This document shows, in pieces, positions 17,629 through 39,450 of a stretch of DNA of 64,000 nucleotides. The stretch comes from Candidatus Woesearchaeota archaeon. GTDB lineage: Archaea; Nanobdellota; Nanobdellia; Pacearchaeales; GW2011-AR1. Below the pieces are notes generated by a model. That model was not told the DNA's origin, did no database searches, and saw only the letters and a program-made list of their open reading frames with translations. The first letter of the stretch is position 1; each line of letters opens with the position of its first letter. Both the position numbers and the translations under genes were made by a program. The stretch is taken from positions 42,842 to 106,841 of the forward strand of contig CAYRXU010000001.1 of assembly GCA_964428325.1 (NCBI GenBank), written 5' to 3'.

Positions 17629-19065
<1,437 letters not shown>

Positions 19066-19486: not shown

Positions 19487-21407
19487 GATATCCATAGGAT
19501 AATATTAATGACAATTCTTTTAGAATTGTCGTCTTACATACTAATTGATGGATAGCTAGGCTCAGGTTGTGACGAAGGACGTGGCAAGCTGCGATAAGCC
19601 TGGGGGAGCTGCATGCGAGCTTTGAACCCAGGATCTCCGAATGTGAGAACGTTCCTCTTAGAGGAATGCCGAGAGGCAAATACACGCCGGGAATTGAAAC
19701 ATCTTAGTACCGGCAGGAATAGAAAACAACCGTGATTCCCTGATTAGCAGCGAGCGAAAGGGGAGAAGGGCAAACTGAATCTCCGTTTGAAAAGACGGCA
19801 GAGATGTGGTGGTGCTGAGGCTTCGGTTTGGAATCGAAGTTCGCTGGAACGCGGCGTCTTAGAGGGTGATAGCCCCGTAGATGAACATACCATGCCGTGC
19901 ACCGAACGAATAGGGCTCCCTAGAATGGAAGTCCGAATACAGCGGGATTAACCGCTAACCCTAAATATTGACCTGAGTCCGATAGTGAACGAGTACCGCG
20001 AGGGAAAGCTGAAAAGTACTCTTAACCGAGGGTTAAAAGACTTGAAATCAATTAGTTACATGATGGTTACTGCATTACGGTGTTGTAACGTACGTGTTGA
20101 AAAATGGGCCAGGGAGTTTTCTCATGTGGCGAGGTTAACGCAAGGAAGCCGTAGCGAAAGCGAGTCTGAAAAGGCGCGAGTCACGTGAGGCAGACCCGAA
20201 GCCGGTCGATCTATTCGTGGCCAGGACGAAGTTCTCCGAAAGGAGAATGGAGGTCCGAACCAGTGATGTGTACAAGCTCTTGGATGAGCCACGATTAGGG
20301 GTGAAAAGCCTATCTAGTCCGGCGATGGCTGGTTCCTGCTGAATTATGCCTCAGTATAGCCTCCATGTGTTTGTCGACGGGGTAAAGTACGGATGAAGTT
20401 TGCAGAGCCGAACGGCTACGAAACTTATTCCAACTCAGAACCTGTTGACTGCTTATATGGGGAGTGGGCGGCGGTGCGTAAGGTACCGTCGCGAGATCAG
20501 AACAAAGAAGACTGGGGTTAAGGTCCCAAAATATATGCTCAGTGTAACAAAAGGAGTCTTGAACCTAAGACAGCGGAGATGTAGGCTTAGAAGCAGCCAC
20601 CATTTAAAGAAAGCGTAACAGCTCATTCGTTGAGGTTCGAGGCCCTGAAGATGGACGGGGCTAAGCATATTACCGATACCCCAGAGGTACGCGCAAGCGT
20701 ATTCTGGTAAGCAGGCGTCTGTTCTGCGCAGAAGTCTTTCCGAGAGGAATGATGGAGCGGGACGGAATGAAAATCCTGGTGTTAGTAAGATCAGATTATC
20801 CTGAGAATGGATAGCGTCGAAAGAGCACGGTTTCCTCGGCACTATATGTTAACCGAGGGTTAGTCGGCACCTAAGTTTTCTCTTAACTGCAGAACGCGAA
20901 TGGAAATCAGGTTAATATTCCTGAACTCTGTGGGGAGCGTCGAACTATGTGTGCGCTTTGGGATATGCTGCATCTCGAGAGGGATGTGCTGCACGAAGAT
21001 GATGGATCGTCATGATAAGAAGTCATCGAATTGTAGCAAGCGATCAGTTGATTCCTAGAGCCCGTGAAACGTACATAGGGAGCGAGCCACGAGCCGTACC
21101 TAGAACTGACACTGGTGCTCAGGTTGAATAGACCAAGACGTGTAAGGTTAAACTGGCTTAGGGAATTCGGCATAATTAGCCCTGTAGCTTCGGTAGAAAG
21201 GGTGTCCATAGTTGTCCTTGATATTAGAGGGCAACGGTGGATCGCAGTGACAAGGACCGCCCGACTGTTTATCAAAAACGTAGCCGATTGCGAATCAGAA
21301 ATGATGTGTATAATCGGTGAGACCTGCCCAGTCGCGGTGTTTCAAACTTCCGTACAAGGGAGCTAAGACCCGTGAAACGGCGGGCCTAACTATGAGGCTC
21401 TTAAGGT

Positions 21408-21717
21408 TGAACTATTAAGAACTGCCTTACGGCACTCTACATTGAGTGACGCTTTAGGCCGCATAGAAAGGCGAAAATAAACAGGAACATTAAAGAAAAT
21501 CAAGCTATATGCTGGAACGTCCGAGTATTTTTGAATACTTGAAAAAGTAAAAATTTCAAAATGCGGATTATCAGCAGGAAAGACTTCTCTAAAGAAGAAT
21601 CCTCAGAGACTGAACGCTTGAACTACGAAAGTAGTAAGATACAGTCCGATCCTTATAGCGATATAAGGTGTCAAGAAAGAAATAGTGTCTAATAATTATT
21701 GACAGTAAAACTCATTG
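21408..21717 (+). other. 23S rRNA intron 1 (~310 nt, AT-rich, no ORF)
   Basis: The conserved ...CTTAAGGT|AGCGAAATTCCTTGTCG... sequence is interrupted. The exon resumes at AGCGTAATGCCTTGTCG. The insert has no long ORF. Confidence 0.6.
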
Positions 21718-22366
21718 AGCGTAATGCCTTGTCGTCTGAATGGCGACGTGCATGAATGGTTCAACGAGGTGGTCACTGTCCCGAGCCAGAACCTTCTGAA
21801 CCCACTTACCGGTGAAAATGCCGGTGTCGCCTAGTGGGAAGCGAAGACCTTGTAAACCTTTACTGCAACTTGTTGTTGTGGTATCGAGAGGGATGCATAG
21901 CGTAGGGAGGAGCATCGATGTCCGCGTTTTGGCGCGGGCGGAGCGCCCCTGTAACACTCCTCATTTCTCTCGGTACTGCTCACCCCTAACGGGGGACACC
22001 AGCAGGCGGGCAGTTTGGCTGGGGCGGCACCCTGCCGAAAAGATATCGGTAGGGCCTAATGACAAGCTCAGTCAGGTTGGAAATCTGACGTTGAGTGCGA
22101 AGGCAAATGCTTGTCTGACTGTATTCCAAACAGCACGGAATGCAGAGATGAAAGTCGGGCTTAGCGACCCCACGTAGCTTTTTAATAGGGCTCGTGTGTG
22201 ACAGAAAAGGTACTTCAAGGATAACAGGCTTGTCGCGCCCGATAGTCCATATTGACGGCGCGGTTTGGTACATCGCTGTCGGCTCTTCCTATCCTGGTGG
22301 TGCATAAGCCACCAAGGGTGTCGGAGTTCACGCATTAAAAGGGATCGTTAGCTGGGTTAAGAACGT

Positions 22367-22675
22367 AAACAATAAACTAACGAATCCAGACCAAATCGCA
22401 ACTATCAAAAATAGCGGCGTTGCACACTTGTGAAGGTGTGAAAAATTAAATCGACTCATATCGGTGAAGCCCTACCATCCAAAAGATGTTGGGTAACCCC
22501 GAGGGAAGTTCTGAAAAAGAACCCCGTAGAGACTTAAGATTTTCTTAACTGAATAGAGCCCGTCAAGCTCGAGAAATCTTGGATCCGGAATACCCGGATA
22601 AGACGTCGATCTCTCAGTAACATGAGATGAAGGTATAGTCCATACAACGCAAAGAAATAAGCGTTGAGTAATATA
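22367..22675 (+). other. 23S rRNA intron 2 (~309 nt, no ORF)
   Basis: The conserved GCTGGGTTAAGAACGT|CGTGAGACAGTT is interrupted. The exon resumes at CGCGAGACAGTTTG just upstream of the sarcin-ricin loop. Confidence 0.6.
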
Positions 22676-22972
22676 CGCGAGACAGTTTGTTTGATATCTA
22701 CTAGGTGCGTGGTTGACTGAGTGGAACGAGTATCTAGTACGAGAGGAACGATACTCGGTGGCCTCTGGTGGGCGGTTGTTATTATAGCAGGCCGCGCAGC
22801 TACGCCATGTATCGATAAGTGCTGAAAGCATCTAAGCACGAAGCGATCCGCAAGACGAGTCAACAAAGGCCGTGATAAAAGATCACGTTGATAGAGTTGG
22901 TGTGTAATCTCCAAGAACCCGAGGAGTTTAGCATGCAACTACTAAAAGCCTCACTTTATTACCTATAATATT

Positions 22973-35388: not shown

Positions 35389-35949
35389 ATGCAATCAAAA
35401 CGTGCAGCCCTCGAGCTTTCTGTCGGAACTATAGTGGTTATTGTTTTGGGAGTTACAATGTTGATCATTGGAATGGTTCTTGTGAGGAATATTATGTGTG
35501 GCGCACTTGGATTGACAAGTGACATCAACGGTAAAGTTCGTGGAGAGATTACGCGATTGTTTGGAAGCTCGCAGGGAGAGATTGAGTGTATTGGTGCCGT
35601 CGGAGATCCTGTTCAGATGGTTCCAGGAGAGTTGAACTCTGCTTATTGTGGCATTAATGCTGAACAAGCAGCTAATTATGAAATTACTATCACTAGTATT
35701 GAACCTCCTCAAGGCGTGACACAGCAGCAAGTTCAGAGCTGGACGCGAGGAACGCTAGGTTGGAAGGGAGCTGTATCCCCTGGAGATACCGAACCCAAGA
35801 GAATTGTACGATTTGATGTGCCGAATAATGCTAATGAGGGTCTTTTGACAATTAATGTTGAAGTCAAGCGTGATGGCTCGCTTATCTCAACAAAGGCCCT
35901 TGATTTTGATGTTAAGCGTGTTGGTCTTGTGAAATCAACTGTTTGCTAG
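35389..35949 (+). CDS. Putative archaeal type IV pilin-like protein (class III signal peptide)
   Basis: MQSKRAALELSVGTIVVIVLGVTMLIIGMVLV has a short basic N-terminus, then KRA, then a hydrophobic stretch with Glu. The start is placed at the internal ATG 35389 rather than the 35320 given by the ORF track, which overlaps the upstream gene. Confidence 0.45.
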   Translation: MQSKRAALELSVGTIVVIVLGVTMLIIGMVLVRNIMCGALGLTSDINGKVRGEITRLFGSSQGEIECIGAVGDPVQMVPGELNSAYCGINAEQAANYEITITSIEPPQGVTQQQVQSWTRGTLGWKGAVSPGDTEPKRIVRFDVPNNANEGLLTINVEVKRDGSLISTKALDFDVKRVGLVKSTVC

Positions 35950-35984
35950 ACATATCTTTATTAATAAATTAAAGATAGAATATT

Positions 35985-36386
35985 ATGGGGACACTTATTG
36001 AGATTAATGATACACTGAAAATTTCAGTAGAAAGAGGATTTCCAGATGAACTAAAACTCGCGGAATATCTTAAAGACCCTGTAAAAACAGCTGAGAAATT
36101 TATAGGAAAAGAGTTTTCTTTTTGGAATAAAGATGAACGTCTATATCATAGGGCGCCAACTAGAGTTTTTCTTGTACAAGAAATTGATGGAAAGTGGCTG
36201 TATTGGGGAAATGCGTGGGTGATTGAACAAACAGTCTCTCAGGGAAAGACTGCAGGCAAGTATAGGATAACTAAGATATATACAAATCCAGAGTTTCAGA
36301 AGAACATGACTAACACGGAATCTCCTCCTAATAAGAGCTTTTTCGCGGGGTATCCTGTAGCAACAGTAGATCCTCAAGGATATTAG
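35985..36386 (+). CDS. Hypothetical protein
   Basis: 133 aa with no recognisable motif. Confidence 0.35.
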   Translation: MGTLIEINDTLKISVERGFPDELKLAEYLKDPVKTAEKFIGKEFSFWNKDERLYHRAPTRVFLVQEIDGKWLYWGNAWVIEQTVSQGKTAGKYRITKIYTNPEFQKNMTNTESPPNKSFFAGYPVATVDPQGY

Positions 36387-36426
36387 CGTTCCAAACGCTT
36401 AAAAACGCCTTTTCTTTGTTTTATAG

Positions 36427-36996
36427 ATGAATAACTATACTAAATATCGTTGGTTTTATACGTCGAATAATACGCTTGTTGTAGGTGGCAAAAGCGCGAC
36501 GCAGAATGATGAGTTATTGTCTTCTGTGGTAAATAACAAGAAAAAATACTACGTTCTTCATACTAGTGCGCCAGGAAGTCCATTTAGCATCGTCATGAAG
36601 GAAAGAGGCAAAGTCGCGAATGGAGAATTGAGGGAAGTTGCAGTATTTACAGCATGCTTCAGTCAAGCATGGAAGAAAGGTGTGAAGAAAGCACAAGTGC
36701 ATATTTTTACTACAGACCAACTAAGCAAACCGAAGGGCGCTAAAGTTGGTACGTGGCATGTTAAGGGCAGCGTCAGGAAAGTTGATGCCGAACTTGCTTT
36801 AGTATTGACACGTCAGAAAGATGTGCTGCGAGCAGTTCCTGCCGCAAGTGCGAAGAAAGTGCTTGCCCAAGTAGTGCCTGGCAAGCTTGACAAGCAAGCA
36901 GCTGTCGCTCAGTGCGAAGTTATCCTCGATAATAATGTAAGCCACGAAGAGCTCATGGGGGCCTTGCCTGCCGGAAACATGGCGGTGAGAGCATGA
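36427..36996 (+). CDS. NFACT-R_1 (DUF814) domain protein
   Basis: Matches DUF814 and NFACT-R_1: YRWFYTSNNTLVVGGKSATQNDEL...YYVLHTSAPGSPFSIV...AAVFTACFSQAWKKG. Confidence 0.5.
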   Translation: MNNYTKYRWFYTSNNTLVVGGKSATQNDELLSSVVNNKKKYYVLHTSAPGSPFSIVMKERGKVANGELREVAVFTACFSQAWKKGVKKAQVHIFTTDQLSKPKGAKVGTWHVKGSVRKVDAELALVLTRQKDVLRAVPAASAKKVLAQVVPGKLDKQAAVAQCEVILDNNVSHEELMGALPAGNMAVRA

Positions 36997-37247
36997 TACA
37001 GTTCATGAAATTCCAGATTGGAAAGTCTGGTGTAAATGAAGGCGTCCTTGAGAGTTTGCGACTTGGTTTTAAGACACATAAAGTGATACGCATTTCTGTG
37101 CTCAAGAACTTTGCACCAACAAAGGAAAAAGTGAAAGAAGTTGCAGATATGCTTGTGCGCGACCTTGGAGGACATTATACTTATGCCCTTATTGGCTTTA
37201 CTATCGTCATGAGGAGACTTTCTGCGCCCAAGAGAAAGGTTGGGTAA
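36993..37247 (+). CDS. YhbY/CRM-domain RNA-binding protein
   Basis: FQIGKSGVNEGVLESLRLGFKTHKVIRISVL...ALIGFTIVMRR matches the YhbY/CRS1 (CRM) fold consensus. Confidence 0.55.
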   Translation: MIQFMKFQIGKSGVNEGVLESLRLGFKTHKVIRISVLKNFAPTKEKVKEVADMLVRDLGGHYTYALIGFTIVMRRLSAPKRKVG

Positions 37248-37280
37248 GATTTATAAGGGGTCCTTTTTACTTCTTAGAAC

Positions 37281-37691
37281 ATGGCACATACACATACTGT
37301 TGATCCTCAAGAGCATAATAAGCAGCTAGCGCTCGAGTTGAAGAAGTCTGGAGACTTCACCCCTCCTGAGTGGGTTTCTCTCGTTAAGAGCGGTGCAGGA
37401 AGAATGAGACCTATCGATGATCCTGATTTCTGGTACAAGAGAGCGGCAAGTATTCTAAGGCAAATGCATATGCGCGGTATTGTTGGTGTTGAACGTTTGA
37501 GAACGCGATACGGAAACAGAAAGAATAGAGGCATGAGACCTGCTGAATTCAGAAAGAGCGCAGGTAAACTTATTCGAGTGATCTTACAGCAAGCTGAAAC
37601 TGCAGGCCTTGTTGAAAAAGCTAAGGGAAAGAAAGCTGGGAGACAGTTGACTGCTCAAGGTAAGAAATTAATTGAAGAGGTAAAGGCATGA
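37281..37691 (+). CDS. rps19e: Ribosomal protein eS19
   Basis: PEWVSLVKSGAGRMRPIDDPDFWYKRAASILRQMHMRGIVGVERLRTRYGNRKNRGMRP is a strong S19e match. Confidence 0.85.
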   Translation: MAHTHTVDPQEHNKQLALELKKSGDFTPPEWVSLVKSGAGRMRPIDDPDFWYKRAASILRQMHMRGIVGVERLRTRYGNRKNRGMRPAEFRKSAGKLIRVILQQAETAGLVEKAKGKKAGRQLTAQGKKLIEEVKA

Positions 37692-37999
37692 TAGCAATTT
37701 CGTCTTCTCAGGAAGATAAAAGGAATTTTGATATTCCTCTTGGATTAGTTATTACGAGATCGAGAGGTGAATCTCTTGCCGTTGTGAATAGAGATAGTGG
37801 AGATTCTATTGTTCTTACCCTAGGGGATAGAAAGGGCAACAAAGCACGGATCGGGATAAATGCAGGAGATAACTATGAAATTGTACGTGCTGAATTGACT
37901 CACGGAGTACCAGGTTTATATGAGGCTATTCGTGAAGGCAAACCAATAACTAAAGAGATGTTAAAAGGTTATGATGTTATGAGGGAAATGGGAAGATGA
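37688..37999 (+). CDS. CsrA/RsmA-like RNA-binding protein (bacterial-type fold) with N- and C-terminal extensions
   Basis: LVITRSRGESLAVVNRDSGDSIVLTLGDRKGNKARIGINAGDNYEIVRAEL aligns to the CsrA consensus MLILTRrvGEtlmIGDdv.vtVLgvkGNqVRiGInAPkevsvhReEi. Start and stop overlap the neighbouring genes (ATGA). Confidence 0.5.
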   Translation: MIAISSSQEDKRNFDIPLGLVITRSRGESLAVVNRDSGDSIVLTLGDRKGNKARIGINAGDNYEIVRAELTHGVPGLYEAIREGKPITKEMLKGYDVMREMGR

Positions 38000-38196
38000 C
38001 GCAGCATTATCACAAAAAAGTTGTTCTTGGAGTACATGGTCGAAGAACAAAGTGGGCACCATTTTGGGCAGTTATCCGTGCATTTGGTAAGGGTAAGAGG
38101 GCGCATCCTTCACAATTGACTCACGTTAGAAGATCATGGAGACGCTCAAAGCTGAAGATCAAGCCGCGTAGAGCTCACAAGACGCATCTAGGATAA
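37996..38196 (+). CDS. rpl39e: Ribosomal protein eL39
   Basis: KWAPFWAVIRAFGKGKRAHP...RRSWRRSKLKI matches L39e. It is extended by about 15 aa at the N-terminus. Confidence 0.75.
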   Translation: MTQHYHKKVVLGVHGRRTKWAPFWAVIRAFGKGKRAHPSQLTHVRRSWRRSKLKIKPRRAHKTHLG

Positions 38197-38200
38197 TAAC

Positions 38201-38722
38201 ATGGCCGAAACAAAACAACACACTGAAAGAACATACGTCATTCCTCTGAAGAAGGAATGGTCAAAGGTACCTAGCTATAAGCGAACGCGCAAGGCCATTG
38301 TGGCGATTAAGCAGTTCGTTGCACGGCACATGAAAGTTTACGATAGAGACTTGGACAAGATCAAAGTTGACAAGTACTTGAACAATGAAATCTGGTCGAG
38401 AGGATCAACTAATGCACCTACTCGTGTGAAGGTGAAGGCTATCCAAGAGAAAGACCATGTTAGAGTAACTTTTGCTGAAACTCCAAAGCACATTACTTTC
38501 ACTCACGAGAAGCATTCACGCCATCACAAGAAAGCTGAGAAGAAAGCTCCTGCCGTTGAAGAGAAAAAAGAGAAGACTGCTGAAGAAGCTAAGGCAGAGC
38601 AAGAGAAAGAACAGTCAGCCGCTATTGTTAAGGAACAGATTGCAGAACAGCAGACAAAGGCCGCTAAGCACACCACCAAGGTGAAGACTCCTGAAATCCA
38701 GAGAATGGCTTTGAAGAAGTAA
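38201..38722 (+). CDS. rpl31e: Ribosomal protein eL31 with Lys-rich C-terminal extension
   Basis: ERTYVIPLKKEWSKVPSYKRTRKAIVAIKQFVARHMKV...LNNEIWSRGSTNAPTRVKVK matches the L31e core. The C-terminal ~70 aa are K/E/A-rich. Confidence 0.8.
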   Translation: MAETKQHTERTYVIPLKKEWSKVPSYKRTRKAIVAIKQFVARHMKVYDRDLDKIKVDKYLNNEIWSRGSTNAPTRVKVKAIQEKDHVRVTFAETPKHITFTHEKHSRHHKKAEKKAPAVEEKKEKTAEEAKAEQEKEQSAAIVKEQIAEQQTKAAKHTTKVKTPEIQRMALKK

Positions 38723-38751: not shown

Positions 38752-39450
38752 ATGCATCTTAAAGAACACATTAAAAATAGTGCTTCTGCTGAGCGTGCTC
38801 GTGTATCTCAACGATTTTTCAAAACAGGTAAAGGAGAATATGGTGAAGGAGATGTTTTCGTTGGATTAACTGTGCCGCAATGCCGGGAGATTGCGAAGAA
38901 GTTTGCGCACCTATCCCTAGAAGAGATTAGGGGACATTTAGCCTCAGAATTGCATGAAGAAAGAATGATCGCCTTATTGATTTTAGTTGAGAAATACAAT
39001 AATGAAAAAGATAGCAGAAATATTATATTTAATTTCTATTTAGATAACATGAGTCGAATTAATAATTGGGACCTAGTAGATTTAAGTGCGGATAAGATTG
39101 TAGGTAAATTTTTATTTGAGCAAAATAAAGATGGAAAGATTCTAACTTCTCTTACAAAGTCAAATGTTCTCTGGGAGCGCCGTATAGCCATAGTTTCTAC
39201 ACTCTACTTTATCAGAAAAAATAAATTTGATTTGACTTTTGAAATGTGTGAGTTGCTTATGAAAGACAAGCAGGATCTTATTCACAAGGCTTGTGGATGG
39301 ATGTTACGCGAAGTTGGCAAGAAAGATGAAAAGGTTCTTAAGGTGTTTTTGAAGAAGCATTATATGAACATGCCTCGAACGATGTTACGTTATGCTATTG
39401 AAAGATTTTCCCAAGACGAGAGGAAGAGATATTTGGAGGGAACAATATGA
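38752..39450 (+). CDS. DNA alkylation repair protein (AlkD/AlkC HEAT-like repeat family)
   Basis: The N-terminal RFFKTGKGEYGEGDVFVGLTVPQCREIAKKF pattern is characteristic of the DNA_alkylation (PF08713) family. 232 aa. Confidence 0.6.
   Translation: MHLKEHIKNSASAERARVSQRFFKTGKGEYGEGDVFVGLTVPQCREIAKKFAHLSLEEIRGHLASELHEERMIALLILVEKYNNEKDSRNIIFNFYLDNMSRINNWDLVDLSADKIVGKFLFEQNKDGKILTSLTKSNVLWERRIAIVSTLYFIRKNKFDLTFEMCELLMKDKQDLIHKACGWMLREVGKKDEKVLKVFLKKHYMNMPRTMLRYAIERFSQDERKRYLEGTI

Follow-up and report, generated by a model that had tools for sequence, protein, structure and literature searches.

A diverged CsrA/RsmA family member in the S19e-L39e slot of a DPANN ribosomal gene cluster

Few global post-transcriptional regulators of bacteria have been studied as thoroughly as CsrA. 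As of 2020 its family had been found exclusively in bacteria, with archaeal remote homologues anticipated from metagenomes (PMC7366521), and csrA is also listed among the highly expressed genes of ultra-small groundwater prokaryotes, in a study in which the domain of the host was not resolved (PMC9938205). Here we analyse a gene from a stretch of 64,000 nucleotides (nt) of Candidatus Woesearchaeota archaeon (assembly GCA_964428325.1, contig CAYRXU010000001.1, positions 42,842 to 106,841 of the forward strand), which we call the window. The open reading frame (ORF) at 37688-37999, placed between the genes of the ribosomal proteins eS19 (S19e) and eL39 (L39e), encodes a diverged member of the CsrA/RsmA family, as indicated by hidden Markov model (HMM) searches, fold and key residues. 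We consider it rather probable that this is a functional CsrA/RsmA of a rare DPANN subfamily, carried as an accessory cassette in a hypervariable slot coupled to ribosomal genes, which would bind RNA and modulate translation. The host belongs to the Pacearchaeota/Woesearchaeota group of DPANN archaea, and the window contains an archaeal 16S rRNA (17630-19065), a tRNA-Ala and an archaeal 23S rRNA (19523-22967). A full-text literature search found no published description of an archaeal CsrA. Automated annotation labels at least one member of the subfamily, in a Pacearchaeota metagenome-assembled genome (MAG), as "carbon storage regulator", so such ORFs are on record, uncommented.

The described proteins of the family (CsrA/RsmA/RsmE, PF02599; E. 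coli CsrA, P. aeruginosa RsmA and P. protegens RsmE) share with the archaeal protein the core of five strands (beta1-beta5) and a helix, Arg44 and the hydrophobic beta1 and beta5. Nevertheless, the archaeal protein has extensions at both termini, a loop insertion of about 5 amino acids (aa), Tyr in place of Val40 and a poorly kept R7, and its gene sits in a ribosomal protein operon with no decoy small RNA found nearby.

Alleles of csrA on phages and plasmids are documented as well (PMC7366521). These alleles (PHROG 9500/5527; RsmQ of pQBR103; RsmM-type phage alleles; PMC7366521, PMC9928087) are accessory and horizontally mobile, as is the archaeal gene, and the insertion and Tyr40 are common to the archaeal proteins and to a subclass found in IMG/VR and on jumbo-phage-like contigs (P0022, P0080, P0087 and others). 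However, the phage CsrAs are 60-80 aa long, they do not have the C-terminal extension with the motif LYxAIRxGxPLTxEM, and they lie amid phage genes (sigma factor, ClpX-like, HNH).

The CsrA regulated by FliW (Firmicutes and others; Geobacillus CsrA-FliW, PDB 5DMB) also extends past the core at the C-terminus, and its chain 5dmb_D gave the best Foldseek E-value. By analogy with FliW-CsrA, a protein antagonist may dock on the archaeal extension. The sequences of the two extensions are nevertheless unrelated, and no FliW was found in the neighbourhood of the archaeal gene. To our knowledge, archaea do not have the bacterial flagellar system to which FliW-CsrA is tied. Finally, the archaeal PDCD5-like proteins (COG2118, PF01984) have in common with the CsrA-like protein the position, a similar size and the coupling to S19e and L39e, but there is no sequence or profile similarity, and a helical bundle stands against a beta-rich CsrA core. 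The archaeal protein is unlike every described branch of CsrA in its host domain, its C-terminal module, its insertion and Tyr40 (common only to the phage-borne subclass) and its residence in a ribosomal operon. The gene and its parts are the following:

37688-37999, + strand: CsrA-like gene, 103 aa plus stop (ORF listing, Pfam CsrA, AlphaFold2 model, Foldseek).
37688-37741, + strand: N-terminal extension, aa 1-18, predicted to be disordered (model confidence and reading of the start codon).
37742-37900, + strand: CsrA core, aa 19-71, comprising beta1-beta5 and the first part of helix 1, with the R67 codon and the loop insertion (Pfam alignment, residue mapping).
37901-37996, + strand: C-terminal helical extension, aa 72-103, with the motif LYxAIRxGxPLTxEM (conservation in homologues, helices of the AlphaFold2 model).

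Regarding the family identity, the ORF matches Pfam CsrA (PF02599) at 34.4 bits (gathering cutoff 27) and E=2.1e-8, residues 20-71 being aligned to model positions 2-48 of 53. The best 8 sequence matches in the PDB are all CsrA/RsmA. Furthermore, an AlphaFold2 model built from a 26-sequence alignment reached a mean predicted local distance difference test (pLDDT) of 81.9, with residues 1-13 below 50 and disordered, strands at 29-33, 40-49 and 52-59, and helices at 68-71, 77-82 and 89-100. In this monomer beta2-4 form a sheet, while beta1 and beta5 are left without intramolecular partners, which in the model is consistent with one chain of a strand-swapped dimer. When the model was compared with the PDB by Foldseek, ranks 1-13 were all CsrA/RsmA/RsmE chains (probability 0.97-1.00, target-normalised template modelling score 0.56-0.78), and ranks 1-7 against the viral structures of BFVD were all phage CsrA with a probability of about 1. 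An initial annotation of this DNA, made from its letters only, had proposed a CsrA-like ORF, had pointed out that CsrA is not expected in archaea, and had suggested an HMM search and a structure prediction as checks; the Pfam score above the cutoff, the CsrA-type fold, the RNA-binding residues described below and the exclusively bacterial family of the literature bear it out. The outcome that it had named as contrary, a better match to the PDCD5/COG2118 family, did not occur: the ORF has no Pfam match to PDCD5/dsDNA_bind at E<=1, and no match in the window was obtained with a local HMM made from three PDCD5-like genes of related loci (L052, L073, L085).

When 1.84 billion representative proteins were searched exhaustively with HMMER, only 28 matches were obtained at E<=1e-3. 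Several large repeat proteins among them (P0002, P0004, P0005 and others) reflect low complexity or bias and were treated as noise. The genuine matches include proteins of 86-118 aa with a CsrA core and the same type of C-terminal extension as the query. Among homologues in the slot, L052 (35.3 bits) and L076 (43.7 bits) are also above the Pfam cutoff, and P0026, L028 and L034 fail it on their own and join through the HMM of the subfamily.

We aligned 18 members of the subfamily to E. coli CsrA in order to map the residues. The equivalent of Arg44 (R67 in the window protein), which is essential for RNA binding (PMC7366521, citing Heeb 2006 and Schubert 2007), is invariant. In beta1, L2 is kept in 17 members, position 4 is hydrophobic (L/I) in all 18 and R6 is kept in 14; in beta5, V42 (I/V/L) and I47 (V/I/L) are hydrophobic throughout and E46 is kept in 15. 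The pairwise identity among the members is only 15-42%, and since the RNA-contacting residues are kept despite this divergence, selection on RNA binding is indicated.

The core of the window protein carries the insertion of about 5 aa in the loop between beta2 and beta3. The extensions of 18 aa at the N-terminus and about 30 aa at the C-terminus, which the initial annotation had described, are real. No other start codon lies between M1 and the core, and therefore the N-terminal extension belongs to the protein; in the homologues it has 0-25 aa, and P0003 also begins with 'MIA'. The C-terminal extension is kept across 15 homologues, with G84 nearly invariant, and is predicted to be helical (77-82 and 89-100) with a pLDDT of about 90; none of the 15 extension segments has a Pfam match. 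The sequences thus point to a rare archaeal CsrA subfamily in Pacearchaeota/Woesearchaeota, marked by the beta2-beta3 insertion, Tyr40 and the C-terminal helical motif of about 30 residues. It is recurrent and selectively maintained, with its own signature extension, in the ribosomal operon of ultra-small DPANN archaea.

As a separate observation, P0010 (138 aa) and P0014 (173 aa) have two tandem CsrA domains per chain, and could form a covalently linked pseudo-dimer.

The genomic context was looked up by exact sequence for six members of the extended family, and five of them were found in the S19e-L39e slot, mostly with 4-nt overlaps: the window protein, P0021 (Pacearchaeota, GCA_018304205.1), P0026 (GCA_964357565.1), P0025 and P0012. 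The genes of an NFACT-R protein and a YhbY/CRM protein recur upstream of the carriers of the slot gene where the contig is long enough. The exception was P0016, which adjoins a nitroreductase gene, and the S19e locus of its assembly (L022) has an empty slot. Because it recurs in archaeal genomes, the gene is genuinely archaeal and not an artefact of binning or assembly.

In order to survey the slot more widely, we scanned GTDB species genomes with an S19e alignment and obtained 80 loci, all of them from MAGs of Pacearchaeota, Woesearchaeota or "Nanoarchaeota". The slot was empty, with L39e coupled directly to S19e, in 51 loci, and it was occupied by unrelated orphan ORFs (ORFans) of 55-264 aa in 19. 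A CsrA-like gene was present in 8 of the 80 loci, or in 12 of 84 in the wider set that counts the window, L003, L010, L013 and L014. Only three loci had a PDCD5-like gene (Pfam dsDNA_bind), namely L052, L073 and the borderline L085, and in L052 the order was S19e, PDCD5-like, CsrA-like and L39e, both genes being separate ORFs. The arrangement S19e-COG2118-L39e is conserved in all the archaea examined in a previous study except Thaumarchaeota (PMC10833476), so the PDCD5-like protein is the canonical occupant, as had been stated from the sequence alone. The Pacearchaeota/Woesearchaeota lineage has mostly lost this arrangement. Regarding the synteny, S19e/CsrA-like/L39e does recur in other genomes, with the P0016 copy outside the ribosomal cluster, and the CsrA-like gene does sit in the PDCD5 slot; nevertheless, it is no simple replacement, because L052 has both genes and 51 of the 80 slots are empty.

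The other occupants of the slot can be described briefly. No Pfam domain was found in any of the 20 slot ORFans tested. A few of them form small families (L045/L050/L038, L025/L026 and L034/L061). The possibility that they are diverged CsrA was considered and is not supported: the 131-aa ORF of L016 is without HMM similarity, and L089 and L025/L026 are borderline (E about 0.01). There is also a second variable slot, between L39e and L31e (38197-38200 in the window), filled in around 20 loci with 22 ORFs, and the ORFans of the two slots are mostly coupled by start and stop codons to the ribosomal genes.

The CsrA-like gene is an accessory gene with turnover by loss or exchange. Its carriers are scattered over the whole neighbour-joining tree of S19e+L39e+L31e. 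In L016, the closest relative (S19e 79% identical), a nucleotide homology of around 70% stops at 37669 and resumes at 37997, and the slot carries the unrelated ORF of 131 aa, which amounts to a precise cassette swap with respect to the window. Furthermore, the G+C content at third codon positions (GC3) of the CsrA-like gene is 0.25, the lowest of the 59 genes of the window (mean 0.397, standard deviation 0.05). The CsrA-like proteins have a mean identity of 24% against 54% for the ribosomal proteins, which means that they evolve far faster. No repeats, integrases or transposases flank the gene, only short chance repeats without insertion scars. The exchange could plausibly have proceeded by recombination in the conserved ribosomal genes on either side. 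For the window gene as for P0021, independent assemblies have identical nucleotides and hence are uninformative on purifying selection.

Regarding the origin, the best HMMER matches outside the family (P0009, P0020, P0022, P0024 and P0028) carry Tyr/Phe40 and, in the beta2-beta3 loop, the insertion of about 5 residues, as do the archaeal proteins, both being derived characters. Among the other CsrAs fetched (167 parsed) the insertion and the character at position 40 strictly co-occur, and the canonical CsrAs, including those named Planctomycetaceae, have neither the insertion nor Tyr40. All four contexts examined for this subclass were phage-like or like those of mobile genetic elements (MGEs). 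P0022 is surrounded by a sigma factor, a ClpX-like gene (phrog_4339, E=1.7e-98), HNH and ParB_N genes; P0087 lies in the same gene set on a 271-kb contig; P0020 is next to ORFans and a RecD-like helicase; and the neighbours of P0080 are an intein-containing helicase and genes of the integrase-like, PriCT and SNF2 types. Viral genomes of IMG/VR, among them two of 145-155 kb, contain relatives of P0087 and P0080. Two scans of viral contigs gave no member of the archaeal subfamily itself.

From the shared indel and residue characters together with these contexts, the best-supported donor would be the phage/MGE subclass rather than a bacterial chromosomal csrA. The gene would have been transferred from this bacterial subclass into a DPANN ancestor, and afterwards it would have been lost, or exchanged between DPANN genomes by recombination in the flanking ribosomal genes. 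The horizontal acquisition proposed initially is well supported by the patchy distribution, the cassette swap, the lowest GC3 and the nearest relatives on phage-like contigs. The analysis brings to light a hypervariable slot in an archaeal ribosomal cluster that is otherwise highly conserved, as well as a probable gene flow from bacterial phages/MGEs to archaea; both the slot and this route bear on how DPANN genomes gain bacterial-type functions.

The phage-like contigs also showed a recurrent module. On L096, L099 (the 271-kb CAYVOK010000001.1), and L102 and L103 (IMG/VR uncultivated virus genomes of 155 and 145 kb), all of them jumbo-phage-like, we found a sigma factor, GGACT, a ClpX-like AAA+ protein, a small ORF, a CsrA with the insertion and Tyr40, a ParB_N-like protein, a glycosyltransferase and HNH. 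This module suggests a phage-encoded control of translation and proteolysis.

The surroundings of the CsrA-like gene comprise the following features:

36427-36996, + strand: gene of an NFACT-R domain protein, conserved upstream neighbour (Pfam NFACT-R_1, E=7.3e-17).
36993-37247, + strand: gene of a YhbY/CRM-domain RNA-binding protein, conserved upstream neighbour (Pfam CRS1_YhbY, E=8.5e-10).
37250-37256, + strand: TTTATAA, a TATA-box-like motif about 28 nt before the ATG of S19e (sequence reading).
37281-37691, + strand: eS19 gene (Pfam Ribosomal_S19e, E=1.7e-40).
37996-38196, + strand: eL39 gene, 66 aa, with a lineage-specific insertion and a C-terminal tail (orthologue profile against the PDB).
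38201-38722, + strand: eL31 gene, with which the ribosomal genes of the cluster end (NCBIfam 73.3 bits, cutoff 68; Pfam Ribosomal_L31e, E=1.5e-11).

The overlaps that had been noticed at both ends of the gene are present in the sequence: the CsrA-like ATG and the eS19 TGA share ATGA at 37688-37691, and the CsrA-like TGA and the eL39 ATG share ATGA at 37996-37999. One transcript would include the gene and the ribosomal protein genes, to which its translation is coupled by ATGA on both sides, and because of this coupling the output of the CsrA-like protein should follow the synthesis of the ribosomal proteins. TTTATAA is a possible promoter of a leaderless S19e-CsrA-L39e-L31e transcript, TATA-like motifs being found at a comparable upstream distance in 21 of 60 window genes. 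The protein would then form the usual interdigitated homodimer, which would bind GGA-type RNA motifs through the beta1/beta5 surface with the invariant Arg, and this binding would modulate the translation of cistrons led by a Shine-Dalgarno (SD) sequence, in the manner of bacterial and phage CsrAs. A partner protein would dock on the C-terminal helices. The 3' end of the 16S rRNA carries CCUCC, and SD-like motifs are enriched around twofold upstream of starts (21/60 vs 10/60). If RNA is bound as the residues suggest, Csr-type control of SD-dependent translation extends to Archaea.

Several results weigh against a role of this kind. The scores for the NCBIfam CsrA equivalogs are far under the cutoffs (26.6 vs 73 bits for TIGR00202 and 19.2 vs 70.1 for NF002469), and because of this the ORF has to be taken as a member of the CsrA family and not as an orthologue of canonical CsrA. 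In the 18 aligned members R7 is kept as R/K in only 8 and V40 is changed to Tyr in 13, so that, to judge from these changes, the RNA specificity may differ from that of canonical CsrA. The divergence of the CsrA-like proteins does not follow that of the ribosomal proteins (Mantel rho -0.04, p=0.57), in a comparison of low power because the ribosomal protein identities are 48-69% and the protein is short. A conserved autoregulatory CsrA site at the ribosome-binding site of L39e (in the window, gagGGAaatgGGAagATG) was considered and rejected, as GGA occurs 0.83 times per locus in the carriers and 1.43 times in the loci with an empty slot, and there is no GGA in the leader of the CsrA-like gene itself. 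A decoy RNA of the CsrB/C or RsmX/Y/Z type was not found in the 64-kb window, either with Rfam or by a scan of GGA density in the non-coding regions, and a comparison of 12 carrier with 72 non-carrier loci over about 8 kb revealed no co-occurring partner gene, FliW-like or other. Finally, the slot accepts unrelated ORFans, and therefore the position is weak evidence for a role in translation. This affects the co-option into the translation apparatus that the initial annotation had suggested: the coupling to ribosomal genes stands, but the position alone is insufficient, given the hypervariable slot and the P0016 copy elsewhere.

A broader scenario can be put forward only tentatively. A CsrA of phage/MGE derivation would have been domesticated in DPANN as a bacterial-type post-transcriptional regulator, made in step with the ribosomal proteins and equipped with a new C-terminal docking module, and cassettes would be exchanged at the S19e-L39e junction, the conserved ribosomal genes serving as recombination arms for the swapping of small accessory RNA-binding or ribosome-binding factors between DPANN genomes. 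If true, Archaea would have here their first Csr-like system of translational control.

Among the other explanations, the one that survives best is that of a conflict-related or selfish accessory gene of viral/MGE origin, for instance one that interferes with translation between virus and host or between symbiont and host. The junction would then be a recombination-friendly, highly expressed landing site, and the position would be incidental. The nearest relatives on phage-like contigs and in IMG/VR, the phage CsrA families in PHROGs and BFVD, the lowest GC3 of the window, the swap with respect to L016, the patchy distribution without co-divergence and the many unrelated ORFans without Pfam domain in both slots all agree with this explanation. 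Nevertheless, the locus has no integrase, transposase or flanking repeats and no PADLOC match that would make it part of a defence system, the archaeal subfamily was not found in viral contigs, and the precise ATGA coupling and the subfamily-specific extension indicate a long residence and selection at the level of the host. We regard this explanation as unlikely, and it concerns origin and role, being compatible with the RNA-binding mechanism.

A ribosome-associated or biogenesis factor, in which the CsrA fold would bind rRNA (a GGA-containing loop, e.g. the GGAA one in helix 45 of 16S, or else the 3' tail) or, through the C-terminal helices, a ribosomal protein, would fill the missing PDCD5-like role without regulating mRNA. 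In most carriers both junctions couple the gene to eS19 and eL39, and it occupies the canonical COG2118 slot in a window without a PDCD5-like gene; the conserved extension of the subfamily could dock on a partner, and there are GGA motifs in the 3' region of 16S. However, the two genes of L052 show that they are not simple substitutes, 51 of the 80 related genomes have neither gene in the slot, and only about 10% of the relatives carry the CsrA-like gene, unlike a core component of the ribosome. The P0016 genome encodes it away from the ribosomal genes, and it evolves faster than the ribosomal proteins. A factor of this type is therefore quite improbable in our opinion.

A decaying, non-functional insert or a spurious ORF would agree with the low GC3 and with the protein being a singleton at the 90% identity level. 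The frame is nevertheless intact with precise overlaps, the structure prediction is confident, and homologues with 26-43% identity in independent genomes keep the length class, the key residues and the C-terminal motif, which makes this explanation very unlikely indeed. The least credible explanation takes the ORF for a PDCD5-like (COG2118) protein that has diverged strongly, or for a fusion in which the PDCD5 C-terminus is kept. It has in its favour the canonical position and a superficial resemblance, by eye, of G-x-P-I-T-x-E-M-L to the G-x-x-E-I-D-D-x-x-L-K-E-I-L of L052, L073 and L085, and against it the negative dsDNA_bind and local PDCD5 HMM searches and the presence of both genes as separate ORFs in L052, and it is refuted at the sensitivity of the comparisons made. 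The idea that the C-terminal extension is a remnant of a displaced PDCD5-like gene was also rejected (hhalign probability 0.13%; 0/15 extension segments match dsDNA_bind).

Regarding the neighbouring genes, the YhbY/CRM and NFACT-R genes occupy equivalent positions in L003 and L010. An ORF of 133 aa (35985-36386, + strand) without Pfam match and with the second-lowest GC3 (0.29) immediately precedes the NFACT-R gene. This ORF is absent from L016, where the homology jumps from 35947 to 36388, and represents another accessory insertion.

The eL39 ORF alone scores weakly (NCBIfam E=0.15 for the single sequence), and a profile of 10 orthologues brings eL39 chains of archaeal and eukaryotic ribosomes to the top of the PDB list (best E=0.002). 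Nearly every one of the 80 related loci keeps this gene between S19e and L31e. In this lineage eL39 has 66 aa against around 51 aa in solved ribosomes. Across the related loci it carries about 7 inserted internal aa (GKGKRxHP) and ends in a conserved basic tail (KPRxxxKxHLG), and HMMs hardly detect it from single sequences. Similarly, eL31 has 173 aa against around 83 aa in the model and carries a long Lys/Glu/Ala-rich C-terminal extension, and it has comparable lengths (170-265 aa) in related loci.

The ORFs inside or beside the 23S rRNA have no Pfam domain. The 23S match itself has 3445 nt against 2987 nt in the model, which means around 460 nt of insertions, possibly introns or expansion segments. 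Downstream of eL31 lies a DNA alkylation repair (AlkD-like) gene (38752-39450) with a low GC3 (0.33), in the position that eIF6 has in the canonical archaeal cluster. It is followed by Cbf5/TruB with a 4-nt overlap, and L016 has around 700 extra nt between these two genes.

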